Part shown: positions 57,769 through 60,677 of the stretch, piece by piece
Position numbering within the stretch: the first letter of the stretch is position 1
Layout of the letters: the number at the start of each line of letters is the position of its first letter
Origin: Staphylococcus phage Fi4S2
DNA: 64,000 nucleotides
Direction: 5' to 3' (one strand)
Sequence record: PV037056.1
The notes under the pieces: model-generated
Database searches by the model: none
Seen by the model: the letters and a program-made list of their open reading frames with translations, nothing else
What the model was told of the DNA's origin: nothing
Program-made: the position numbers and the translations under genes

Positions 57769-58350
57769 ATGAAATTTATATTTTTCACAGACAGTCATTT
57801 TCACTTATTCACAGACTTTAGTAAACCTGATGAGTTTTATCGTAATGACAGATTTAGAGAACAGATAGAAACTTTAAATCATGTTTTTACTCTTGCTAGA
57901 GAAAAGGAAGCTACAATTATTTTTGGTGGTGATTTATTTCATAAACGTAATGCTGTAGATACAGTAGTATATAATGAGGTATTTAAGGTATTTGCTAGAA
58001 ATAAAGATGTAGCTGTCTTATTACTCAGAGGCAACCATGATGCTACAACCAATTCAGTGTATACTGACTCAAGTATAGACACGTTTGAATACTTACCTAA
58101 TGTAAGTGTATTTCAATCTTTTGGAACTATAGAGGTAGGTAATGCAAACTTAGTATTTACAGCTTATGGTGATGAGACTGAAGAGATAAAGGACTACATT
58201 GAAGATAACTACAATACAGATAAGGTTAACATCCTTGTAGGACACTTAGGTGTAGAAGGGTCTTTAACAGGTAAAGGTTCACACAGATTAGAAGGAGCTT
58301 TTGGGTACCAAGACCTTTTACCTGATAAGTATGATTTTATTCTTTTAGGG
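57769..58350 (+). CDS. sbcD: SbcD/Mre11-like nuclease, exon 1 (motifs I-IV)
   Basis: GGDLFH (II), LLLRGNHD (III), ILVGHLGVEG (IV), ends YDFILLG where E. coli SbcD has DYIALGHIH; stop follows immediately. Confidence 0.75.
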
Positions 58351-58523
58351 TAGATGCCCTGCTTATTCGTAAAGAGTAAGTACCGAGTGTTAAATGCTAT
58401 GAATCCGTAAAGCTAACTAAACTGAAACAGAAGAGGAAACTCTAGATGGAAAAGTTGTGAAAACAGAAAAAATTAGTTAGATGTACTAAGGTTAAATCCT
58501 AAGGTATACACAATCGGTCTATA

Positions 58524-58680
58524 GCAGGGAAAGACCTAAGTTCAAATGAATAAGGGAGACCCTCAACGACTATTCCGTATAGGTGACGGAAGTAAAACCC
58601 TAAACGACTGAGGGAAGAAAAATACTCCTACCTTAACTAAGGTAGAACAAATAGTCTCCACCCGTACCGAAAGGTAGGGC
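58524..58680 (+). ncRNA. group I intron catalytic-core-like elements
   Basis: gCAGGGAAAg (P/P4-like, 58524-58533), GACUAU (58568-73) complementary to AUAGUC (58651-56) = P7-like, AAAUAGUCUCC (S-element-like), hairpin ttccgt/acggaa (58573-91), stem ctacctt/aaggtag (58626-46), cccgtacc-GAAA-ggtaggg GNRA-capped helix (P9-like). Confidence 0.5.
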
Positions 58681-58750
58681 TATAGATGAACTATAGGATT
58701 ACAAAGTGGTGTTTGTAATCAAAGAATGTTAAATAAATTATAACTTCCTA

Positions 58751-58779
58751 TTGACATTACTTCCCTAACATGTTATAGT
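58751..58779 (+). promoter_or_regulatory. consensus sigma-A promoter inside the intervening sequence driving tnpB
   Basis: TTGACA-17 bp-TATAGT, then TAAGGAGGTG RBS before ATG 58802. Confidence 0.5.
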
Positions 58780-58801
58780 ACATGTATAAGGAGGTGTAAT
58801 A

Positions 58802-60076
58802 ATGTCAGAAAGTACAACGTACAGAAAAATTAAAATAAGGTTAGTACCAACAAAAGAACAGGAAGAGTTAATGTGGAAGCATGTTCATGCTAGTAGATTT
58901 ATTTACAATTGGGGTCTTGAAAGGTGGTATAGTAATTTAGATAATGGAATAAAGAATACTACAAGTAATAAGTTATCTAAAGAACTAAAAACAGTGAAAG
59001 AAGAAAACCCATGGTTAAAAGAGGTATCTAATAAAACTTTAGTAAAATCATTACAAGTTCTAGAGTTTAATATGAAGAGGTTTTTTAAAAAACAAACTAA
59101 AAGACCTAAATTTAAGAGCTCTAAAAGCAGTATACCTTCTTTTAAAACACGAACAGAAACTAAGTGGGGTAATAAACATTTACCTAACATTGAAGGAGAT
59201 AGGATACGGTTAGAAAAACTAAAATTAGTTAAATTATCTTCTAAGATAACTAAATCTATGAAAGAAAAGAACATAAACCCTGTATTTTATTCTAGTACAA
59301 TCTATTATGATGGTAAATATTGGTATATTTCATTAGCATATAAAGTCGAGAACCAAGACAAAAAAGAACTCACCAATGAAACCATAGGTATAGACTTAGG
59401 AATAAAATCATTAGCTACTTGTTCAAATGGTAAATCTTATAAAAATATTAATAAAAGTTCTAAAGTTAAAAAACTAGAGAAAAGACTAACTAGATTACAA
59501 AGACAACTATCACGTAAGTATGAAATGAATAAAGATAAAATACGAGTAGGACTACTTAATACAGATGGAACACCTAAGATAGATAAGCAAGGTAGACACA
59601 TGTATAAGTATTCTAAAACTAAGAACATTATTAAGTTAGAAAAAGAGATAAAACTCTTACACAGAAAACTTAAAAATATTAGAAATAATCATGTTCATAC
59701 TATGACTAAAGAAATAGTAGAATTATTACCACAAGAAATAGTAATAGAAGATTTAAAAGTAAGTAATATGTTAAAGAATAAACATTTATCTAAACATATA
59801 AGTAAAGCTAATTGGTATGAAATACGTAGACAATTAACTTATAAATGTGAGGATAGAGGAATTCTTCTTACAATAGCAAATACTTATTACCCTTCAAGTC
59901 AAACCTGTAGTCATTGTGGTAATCGTTTAACCAAACAAGACAAACTTAGTCTTAAAGAGAGAACTTACAAATGTAAGAAATGTAATTCTAGTTTAGATAG
60001 GGACTTAAATGCTAGTATTAACTTAATGAACTATAGATACTCCAAATGGTGTCAAAATAATATAATTTCACAATAA
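58802..60076 (+). CDS. tnpB: IS200/IS605-family TnpB (OrfB; OMEGA RNA-guided nuclease)
   Basis: 424 aa; RuvC-I IGIDLGIKSLA, RuvC-II IVIEDLKVSNM, zinc finger CSHCGN...CKKC, RuvC-III DRDLNASINL; N-terminal OrfB_IS605-like region. Confidence 0.85.
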   Translation: MSESTTYRKIKIRLVPTKEQEELMWKHVHASRFIYNWGLERWYSNLDNGIKNTTSNKLSKELKTVKEENPWLKEVSNKTLVKSLQVLEFNMKRFFKKQTKRPKFKSSKSSIPSFKTRTETKWGNKHLPNIEGDRIRLEKLKLVKLSSKITKSMKEKNINPVFYSSTIYYDGKYWYISLAYKVENQDKKELTNETIGIDLGIKSLATCSNGKSYKNINKSSKVKKLEKRLTRLQRQLSRKYEMNKDKIRVGLLNTDGTPKIDKQGRHMYKYSKTKNIIKLEKEIKLLHRKLKNIRNNHVHTMTKEIVELLPQEIVIEDLKVSNMLKNKHLSKHISKANWYEIRRQLTYKCEDRGILLTIANTYYPSSQTCSHCGNRLTKQDKLSLKERTYKCKKCNSSLDRDLNASINLMNYRYSKWCQNNIISQ

Positions 60077-60233
60077 AAGAAATATATTATATGTAGGATT
60101 CCGTAAATCCGAATTTACGCCTTTGGAGTATCATACAAACCTTAGTAGAGTAATAAGAAGTAATTCTTTACAGAATGAAATACTCAAAAAGGGATACGTT
60201 GAAGAAGGAAGTTATAAATTAATTAACATACGG

Positions 60234-60677
60234 CATTATCATAGAAGACAGTATTTCCAAAACCCAAATCACTTTTATGGTGGTTCTTTAATGCAACAAT
60301 CGTTCTCAGATGAGCAAGAAGCTAATGGTGTTCACTTAATAGATACTGATACTATTACAACGGAATTTATACCTCTAGATACACGTAGGTTTATTACAGT
60401 AAGAGGAGATGATGTTCCTGAAGACCTAGACCAACTTATAGAGTATGGTCACTTCATTAGATTTGTAGGTAGTACTAACCAAGCTAAAGCGATAGAGTTA
60501 GCATCTACAGATGAGACTAATAACATACGAGTAGAGTTACAAAAAGATTATACGGTAGAAAAACGTATAGATAGTGAAGTCACTGACTCACCATTATCTA
60601 TAGCATCAAGCTATTCAGATAAGTACTATCCTGAAGCTAAAAAAGAAATACTAGAATGTCTACAGGAGGTGTTATAG
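60234..60677 (+). CDS. sbcD: SbcD/Mre11-like nuclease, exon 2 (motif V onward)
   Basis: HYHRRQYFQNPNHFYGGSLMQQSFSDEQEANGVHLIDTD aligns with E. coli SbcD GHIHRAQ...YCGSPIPLSFDE...YVHLV; track start 60123 is TTG without RBS. Confidence 0.7.
   Translation, partial: HYHRRQYFQNPNHFYGGSLMQQSFSDEQEANGVHLIDTDTITTEFIPLDTRRFITVRGDDVPEDLDQLIEYGHFIRFVGSTNQAKAIELASTDETNNIRVELQKDYTVEKRIDSEVTDSPLSIASSYSDKYYPEAKKEILECLQEVL

Follow-up and report, generated by a model that had tools for sequence, protein, structure and literature searches.

The SbcD/Mre11-like nuclease gene of Staphylococcus phage Fi4S2 is interrupted by a large insert that carries a tnpB gene, and the question raised by this locus is whether the nuclease gene is dead or is restored at the RNA level. 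The window analyzed was a 64,000-nt stretch of the phage genome (PV037056.1), to which all coordinates refer. Its source is a Staphylococcus myophage of the Twortvirinae (Herelleviridae), and the nearest database relative found here was vB_SsapH-Golestan-100 (Golestan-100), with 95–97% DNA identity in the region of the insert. As described below, the insert is very probably a group B (IS607-family) IStron, with a group I intron in its 5′ part followed by tnpB, which would restore sbcD by splicing and carry its own TnpB-ωRNA system; it is regarded as non-autonomous because it is without tnpA.

Comparison with Golestan-100 (LC647030) revealed the same gene without interruption, encoding 341 aa and reading ..TTTATTCTTTTAGGG|CATTATCATAGAAGAC.. 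(TTAGGG|CATTAT) at the position of the insert. In the window, the open reading frame (ORF) 57769–58353 encodes 194 aa ending in ..YDFILLG, with TAG directly after, and the 147 codons of the downstream part bring the total to 341 aa, as in the intact ortholog. Joining ..LLG^HYH.. restores the phosphoesterase motif V signature GHxH. The empty site placed the insert at 58351–60233 (1,883 bp), in agreement with the split at motif V and the length of ~1.88 kb that had been proposed in an earlier note on this DNA, and showed insertion after AGGG, a 3′ end of ACGG (CGG), and no target duplication. Because GG precedes both insert ends, the boundaries are ambiguous by 2 nt, and placement at 58350–60232 or 58349–60231 leads to the identical DNA product. 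The earlier note had also considered that the two halves might be normal independent genes in phage relatives; the opposite was found, Golestan-100 having one continuous gene.

The Pfam Metallophos domain was detected on exon 1 (E = 1.7e-13) and also on the intact ortholog (calcineurin-like phosphoesterase). The assignment to SbcD/Mre11 is sound because an SbcC/Rad50-like gene with a zinc hook is located downstream. Both exons retain all their motifs, as the earlier note had stated for the catalytic residues, and its observation that the downstream half has no ATG or ribosome-binding site also held: the sole in-frame start upstream of HYH is TTG 60123, which lies inside the ωRNA (RAGATH-18) and is without a Shine-Dalgarno sequence. 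Between the window and phage PSU6, the ratio of nonsynonymous to synonymous divergence (dN/dS) of the exons was 0.08–0.13; compared with Golestan-100, exon 2 displayed 100% amino acid identity, with 0 nonsynonymous changes at a dS of 0.157. This conservation is supportive of a living host gene but not decisive, because much of the divergence may be older than the insertion.

The insert contains, in order, a structured 5′ RNA (58351–58720), a 424-aa TnpB ORF (58802–60076), and a 157-nt 3′ tail. The P1 helix has its U·G pair one base into the intron, after a 5′ exon whose last base is G. Pairing of the intron guide sequence GAUGCCCU with the ligated exons, AGGG|CAUU, is unbroken. Two junctions had been left side by side in the earlier note, in which the G before the 5′ splice site was held against LLG|HYH (58350/60234). 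The empty site of Golestan-100 and the pairing of the guide sequence with the ligated exons identify this junction as the correct one, and the objection is removed by the published observation that group B IStrons splice after G, with the U·G pair moved one base into the intron (PMC4227781). This geometry has been confirmed experimentally for group B IStrons (PMC4227781; PMC10690162; review PMC13565253), splicing after G having been shown for BcISt1 and CboIStron (PMC4227781, PMC10690162). Two other placements were tried and rejected. The junction LL|HYH (58346/60233) would cost the protein its conserved Gly, and the intact ortholog, reading LLGHYH, contradicts it. Cleavage after U58351, the canonical position, would produce GGG-UAU.. 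(G-Y), with loss of the motif V His; group B IStrons splice one base upstream.

Homologs of the intron part were searched for by blastn with 58340–58805 and found at 321 places in 132 phage genomes, mostly of Staphylococcus, some of Enterococcus, plus phage c-st. Sixteen of the homologs were aligned (alignment A1), on which RNAalifold predicted 88 pairs, 57 with compensatory changes; P7, P8, and P9.1 were added by hand before pair counting. Over the 16 sequences and 106 pairs, 93.1% of cells form standard pairs, compared with 36–45% when the partners were slid by 1–3 columns. Changes on both sides (compensatory) were found in 65 of the 106 pairs, the covariation score was 0.525 versus at most 0.094 for the slid versions, and none of 500 shuffles attained any observed pairing value. 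The window copy forms 101 of the 106 conserved pairs. The helices follow the order P2, P3, P4-P6, P7, P7.1, P7.2, P3′, P8, P7′, P9, P9.1, and P9.2. The standard P3-P7 pseudoknot is formed, and no variation was seen across the alignment in the P7/J6-7 core (CAACGACUA ... AAUAGUCU). The order P7-P7.1-P7.2-P3′-P8-P7′ and the extended P9 are features of the IA2 subgroup, a layout reported for all IStrons (PMC4227781). A link to the crystallised Twort ribozyme was also sought, and blastn of the window, ECP3, WV, and Terranova introns against 1–50 kb of Twort produced no match.

Following P9.2, GAAUGU (58724–58729) precedes the 5′ arm of an AU-rich inverted-repeat stem and is close to the published motif at this place, GAAUAU/GAAUAA. 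Duplex folding showed the stem in all TnpB-bearing copies, with a different sequence each time. The tnpB gene has a strong ribosome-binding site, AAGGAGG, at 58788–58794 and a sigma-70-like promoter at the same position as one annotated in phage Remus, with TTGACA kept in other copies. The best solved relative of the TnpB protein was the IS607 TnpB structure PDB 8iaz (E = 4e-51, residues 9–410). Residues D198, E316, and D399/D401, corresponding to the Asp-Glu-Asp of the RuvC catalytic site, and four Zn-finger Cys (CxxC..CxxC) were invariant in 7 copies, and tnpB had a dN/dS of 0.29 against PSU6.

The 3′ tail gave a match to RAGATH-18 (Rfam RF03064) at 60120–60210, scoring 65.8 bits against a gathering score of 44.9; RAGATH-18 is the guide-RNA (reRNA) scaffold of IS607 TnpBs (PMC11061315). 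Just 3′ of the tnpB stop, the hairpin loop CCGUA (60101–60105) can pair with UACGG, the final five bases of the intron, and this pseudoknot pairing is preserved by two-sided changes in other copies (CCAUGA/UCAUGG, CCAUA/UAUGG, and CGUUG/CAACG). Minimum free energy folding of the 3′ tail alone was no better than that of shuffles (z = -0.24), so the support for the ωRNA comes from the Rfam match and covariation and not from folding energy. The predicted exon-2 guide after AGGG (CATTATCATAGAAGAC..) has an exact match in Golestan-100, in which AGGG is followed by at least 24 identical bases; the empty allele shows AGGG beside the guide match, and the occupied allele shows ACGG. The predicted TnpB target would be AGGG + CATTATCATAGAAGACAGTA, and its PSU6-type counterpart would be CACTACCACCGTAGAC.

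All defining features of a group B IStron that could be tested are present in the insert, and the absence of tnpA (ORF A) is shared with many published group B elements, such as CbISt4 and CsISt1, this gene being found only in autonomous members (PMC4227781). The architecture described in the earlier note, a group I 5′ part, tnpB, and a ~157-nt tail, is borne out by the covariation, the Pfam domains, and RAGATH-18. Of its assignment to an IS200/IS605 tnpB, the tnpB part stands and the family does not: the AGGG target, CGG end, AU-rich stem, RAGATH-18, and 8iaz make it IS607-type. A group A IStron (IS200/IS605, HUH TnpA) was rejected, since it needs a TTGAT/ATTAT/TTTAT target, a TCAG end, and a short balanced stem, in place of the AGGG, ACGG, and AU-rich stem observed here. 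The features are listed in Table 1.

Table 1. Features of the interrupted SbcD-like gene, the IStron, and the downstream partner gene (window coordinates)
Feature	Position	Strand	Description and basis
Exon 1, SbcD/Mre11-like nuclease ("recombination exonuclease A")	57769..58350	+	194 codons ending ..ILLG; colinear with Golestan-100 L001:1501-2082
P1 helix	58347..58360	+	Exon AGGG and intron U58351 paired with guide sequence GCCCU (58356-58360); direct reading
Whole IStron	58351..60233	+	1,883 bp; opens UAG (in-frame stop for unspliced mRNA), ends ..AUACGG; empty-site comparison; same site occupied in PSU6
Group I (IA2-type) ribozyme body	58361..58720	+	16-sequence alignment A1, RNAalifold, pair counts
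Ribozyme helices	P2; P3 58385-89/58623-27; P4-P6; P7 58568-72/58652-56; P7.1; P7.2
Ribozyme helices, 3′ part	P8 58628-45; P9 58661-79; P9.1 58680-96; P9.2 58697-58720
AU-rich inverted-repeat stem, 5′ arm	58728..58748	+	Pairs with 60207-60227, 19/21 bp; blastn self-match, duplex folding
tnpB promoter, sigma-70-like	58751..58779	+	TTGACA-17 nt-TATAGT, TG extension; best site in region, 11/12 matches
tnpB	58802..60076	+	424 aa; IS607-type; Pfam HTH_OrfB_IS605, OrfB_IS605, Cas12f1-like_TNB
ωRNA (reRNA) scaffold	60096..60233	+	Hairpin 60096-60110 with loop CCGUA, RAGATH-18 core, 3′ inverted-repeat arm, terminal UACGG
Inverted-repeat stem, 3′ arm	60207..60227	+	G60207-G60208 common to closing stem of RAGATH-18
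UACGG	60229..60233	+	Pseudoknot partner of loop 60101-60105; also 3′ splice site (terminal G60233)
Predicted ωRNA guide	60234..60253	+	First 20 nt of exon 2, CAUUAUCAUAGAAGACAGUA; predicted from IS607 TnpB biology (PMC10690162, PMC11061315)
Exon 2, SbcD-like gene	60234..60677	+	147 codons, opening HYHRRQYF.. (phosphoesterase motif V), stop at 60677
SbcC/Rad50-like partner gene	61058..62935	+	Pfam AAA_23 and Rad50 zinc hook; small ORF between SbcD-like gene and this gene

In the proposed mechanism, the 5′ ~370 nt would fold into a group IA2 ribozyme, with the guide sequence paired to the last four exon bases, AGGG. The intron would be excised after G58350 and after G60233, joining ..ILLG to HYH.. 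to give a 341-aa SbcD/Mre11 nuclease; the AU-rich stem (58728–58748/60207–60227) would loop out tnpB and carry the 3′ end to the ribozyme core, and unspliced mRNA would terminate immediately at the intron-opening UAG. The tnpB gene would be transcribed from its own promoter. The ωRNA would consist of the last ~140 nt of the intron and the first ~16–20 nt of exon 2 and would direct TnpB to intron-less alleles, which present the transposon-adjacent motif (TAM) AGGG and then CATTATCATAGAAGAC.., while the occupied allele (ACGG) would be spared. The terminal UACGG is taken up by the ωRNA pseudoknot, so that a transcript could adopt either the ωRNA fold or the splicing fold but not both.

Eight TnpB-bearing elements at seven sites were compared: those in sbcD of the window and PSU6, in SPJ2 sbcD (GGDLFH motif), in the Remus portal gene, in the qdsa001 tail lysin gene, in an SA11 gene, in a DH2 gene, and in c-st. 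All eight follow NNGG and end in (C/U)GG. Across the 7 sites the guide sequence varies with the exon (AGGG/CCCU, GCGG/CCGU, GAGG/CCUC), and exon joining yields a long ORF at each of them; the U·G shift in P1 is present in 7 of the 8 elements, SA11 having U-A. The portal protein is required for head assembly in any tailed phage, and because it is indispensable, the portal and tail-lysin insertions are hard to explain unless they are removed from the RNA.

PSU6 has the same element, with ~92% identity, at the same site as the window. Identity between the two was 90.9% for the intron 5′ part and 93.5% for tnpB (dS 0.16), compared with 71.9% for exon 1, 61.6% for the helicase gene, and 59.4% for the next gene, and dS of the exons was 1.6–2.6. 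Because the dS of the element is 0.16 versus 1.6–2.6 for the exons, these sequence comparisons indicate that the IStron is horizontally mobile and far younger than the divergence of the host phages; its tenfold lower synonymous divergence than that of the host gene fits recent horizontal spread.

Related copies were observed elsewhere. In the Silviavirus phages SPJ2 and LJLAME001 (L003/L004, ~1519–3425), a 1,955-bp IStron is located in the SbcD-like gene after GGGG (..IFGG|DLFH..); because this insertion site differs from that in the window, the SbcD-like gene family has been struck twice, at two active-site motifs. Copies in the portal gene (L005, L006, and L009) and in SA11 (L008) score below the RAGATH-18 gathering score and end in UGG, not CGG. 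A CCUUUGGAGUAUC..AGUAG start is still recognizable in them, and both the inverted-repeat stem and the pairing of the pseudoknot are kept; their 3′ ends appear to be a diverged ωRNA variant. Homologous introns of ~300–450 nt without tnpB were found in tail/lysin genes of SSP49 (L010), CF5 (L011), Alsa_1 (L012), and Terranova (L013), in which AAGG|U likewise pairs with GCCUU; loss of the IS part from IStrons may have produced them, or they may represent the ancestral intron type. No close TnpB relative was found when bacterial genomes were scanned with the single protein, and in a profile scan the bacterial relatives reached at most 48% identity, the 80 kept including none from Staphylococcus. 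A homologous intron together with RAGATH-18 is present at some Clostridium loci.

Several observations weigh against the insert being a spliced IStron with a TnpB-ωRNA system. Splicing, like ωRNA production and DNA cleavage by TnpB, is inferred from sequence. The Rfam group I model, a search proposed in the earlier note, had no match on the element even at E ≤ 10; this miss carries no weight, because the model also fails on the intron homologs, the published c-st IStron, and 7 Clostridium chromosomal IStron loci. The candidate P10, in which GAUG (58353–58356) can pair with the exon-2 CAUU, is 4 bp in the window, 5 bp in DH2, and only 1–3 bp in several other copies, making P10 weak as general support for the 3′ splice site. 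The route to new sites also has to be accounted for, as the ORF list and the sequence show no tnpA in the element and no room for one; tblastn of a gamma-delta resolvase sequence found nothing in the window, which is a weak negative. Furthermore, 6 of 16 guide positions are not the same in the window and PSU6 and no co-conversion is seen in the immediate flanks, so simple TnpB homing between the two lineages does not explain the shared site. Candidate routes are intermediates, TnpA in trans, or reverse splicing with selection for splicing-competent sites. In the Silviavirus VL10 (L100, ~3430–5375), an intron-less IS607 was observed whose serine-recombinase tnpA is intact (60% identity with a Clostridium TnpA) and whose tnpB shares 44% identity with that of the window; RAGATH-18 is also present, and the repeat GGATTGAAGCA flanks the IS607; a second RAGATH-18 (L100, 7198–7287) lies beside a 138-nt tnpB remnant in the portal gene. 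Because this IS607 has an intact tnpA, a transposase source within this phage group is possible.

Three other explanations of the locus were weighed. In one, sbcD would have been knocked out by an IS607-type tnpB element whose ribozyme is an inactive remnant, the phage coping without it or using the host SbcCD. Homologs of the SbcD-like gene may be dispensable in some phages, and both the inferred status of splicing and the Rfam miss can be counted for a dead gene. Such a remnant, however, is not what the RNA looks like, with 101 of 106 conserved pairs formed in the window sequence, an invariant core (P7, J6/7), and a guide sequence matching the exon, nor are decayed exons observed: they are intact in two divergent phages, with the low dN/dS and the unchanged exon 2 given above. 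As the same architecture also interrupts portal and tail-lysin genes, loss of the gene is considered improbable. A smaller chance is given to restoration at the DNA level, in which a serine TnpA acting in trans would precisely excise the element in a fraction of genomes, as for CseIStron-2, with splicing minor. IS607 TnpA excision yields the same junction as splicing (PMC10690162), and VL10 provides an example of an intact tnpA in Silviavirus; against this, the element has no tnpA, the resolvase query found none in the window, and excision would give no reason why the ribozyme and the pairing between guide and exon are so strongly conserved. The least probable, at a very low chance, is that the halves are separate polypeptides assembling into a working nuclease with no need of splicing. 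The PSU6 record does annotate a second coding sequence ("nuclease SbcCD D subunit") from a TTG upstream of HYH, but the corresponding TTG in the window (60123) is within the RAGATH-18 RNA and lacks a Shine-Dalgarno sequence, the break falls within motif V (GH|YH), i.e., inside the metal site, and the gene of Golestan-100 is continuous.

Phage c-st is a non-integrating, plasmid-like prophage carrying a neurotoxin gene. Group B IStrons have been reported in this phage and in D-1873, both of Clostridium botulinum (PMC4227781), and related copies, unrecognized as such, are common in Silviavirus; the description in the earlier note of a rare architecture known from Clostridioides/Bacillus chromosomes was therefore incomplete. 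Like the window element, the c-st IStrons CbISt4/CbISt3 (PMC4227781) are phage-borne, with an IA2-type intron followed by an IS607-type tnpB and a 3′ RAGATH-18 ωRNA. The c-st IStron, inserted after GAGG, likewise ends in CGG; its inverted-repeat stem is AU-rich too, and its U·G pair is also shifted by one base into the intron. Its intron can be aligned with that of the window (blastn, MAFFT), and the TnpBs are 50% identical. The two differ in host clade and host gene, Twortvirinae being described as lytic, and the P1 of the window is short, without the GUAAC..GUUAC hairpin of c-st and most Silviavirus copies.

By its description, CboIStron of C. botulinum BKT015925 (Zedaveinyte et al., PMC10690162; PMC13521648) resembles the window element in its GG-core target, an ωRNA scaffold ending in ..CGG, a TAM of NGGG versus a self sequence of NCGG differing at position -3 (TGGG versus TCGG in CboIStron), an ωRNA pseudoknot that overlaps and occludes the 3′ splice site (PMC10690162), and a splice junction that equals the transposon boundary; unlike the window element, it encodes a serine recombinase TnpA. 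BcISt1 of the Bacillus cereus group, also likened by description, has the group B architecture, splicing after G and not U, and the same P1 geometry (PMC4227781), but is bacterial and chromosomal. ISFba1, the source of 8iaz (PMC11061315), shares the guide-RNA family and G-rich TAMs with the window element; it is an intron-less IS607, and the phage TnpB has a ~22-aa insertion at ~residues 245–270. Classical phage group I introns with homing endonucleases are likewise self-splicing, lie in conserved motifs of genes that are essential or serve DNA metabolism, and carry a nuclease possibly driving homing. The window IStron differs from them in a TnpB that is guided by RNA and takes its target from the flanking exon instead of through protein-DNA recognition, and in its 5′ splice site after G.

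A full-text literature search found no paper naming IStrons or linking TnpB with introns in Staphylococcus/Herelleviridae phages; the Romulus/Remus genome paper was outside its coverage and may already link OrfB to introns. In one report (PMC13346280), group I introns, RAGATH-18, and "transposase" are listed side by side and unconnected. TnpB-ωRNA-driven intron homing without TnpA was raised as a possibility in a 2026 review (PMC13565253). We tentatively suggest, though with more doubt than belief, that tnpA-less IStrons may spread through virulent Twortvirinae by acting as homing introns guided by RNA: in co-infected cells, TnpB would cut the intron-less allele of a competitor, and recombinational repair would copy the element in. 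If this is true, the homing nuclease would be re-programmed at each new insertion site and might be a weapon in phage-phage competition. The natural intron-plus alleles (the window phage and PSU6) and the intron-minus allele (Golestan-100) in a fast lytic system would allow a direct homing test, and the same system could show the conflict between splicing and guide-RNA formation during infection. Dozens of genomes of Staphylococcus myophages, several phage-therapy candidates included, have the pieces of these elements annotated separately, under the labels "transposase", "RAGATH-18", and split "portal", "tail lysin", or "exonuclease". When they are read as IStrons, intact essential genes are restored, and the weight of a "transposase" flag in safety assessments is altered. 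Such elements are likely under-counted, because the Rfam group I model misses the whole IA2/IStron intron clade.

A second interrupted gene was observed in the window. The family A DNA polymerase gene (15277–19601, minus strand) is split into 17049–19601, which encodes uracil-DNA glycosylase and 3′-5′ exonuclease and runs into the polymerase domain, and 15277–15933, which encodes the end of that domain. The intervening 15934–17048 contains an I-HmuI-like HNH endonuclease ORF (16158–16811) and group I core motifs (CAACGACUAUCG ... GAUGUAGUCUAGUCC) and, as far as its sequence goes, looks like a classical intron with a homing endonuclease; Rfam also missed it. A 58-nt segment of this intron (15967–16024) is 98% identical to Golestan-100 L018 3291–3348, located between two terminase-large-subunit fragments, which suggests that intron modules are common to different genes.

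Positions 8922–23180 of the window match the reverse complement of Golestan-100 67112–80201 (ribonucleotide reductase, DNA polymerase, and recombinase genes), and from 24577 the window tracks Golestan-100 from 23906 onwards (tail genes). Window 1–24600 is not colinear with Golestan-100, and the terminase, portal, capsid, and sheath genes upstream of Golestan-100 23906 are missing at that place; the cause may be a true rearrangement, a genome that is laid out differently, or an artefact of assembly. The ORF at the junction (23646–24581) had no Pfam match. In Golestan-100 (L018), the terminase large subunit (2484–5608) and an amidase (8515–10247) are each annotated as two coding sequences with an intervening sequence, and these interruptions are probably further introns.

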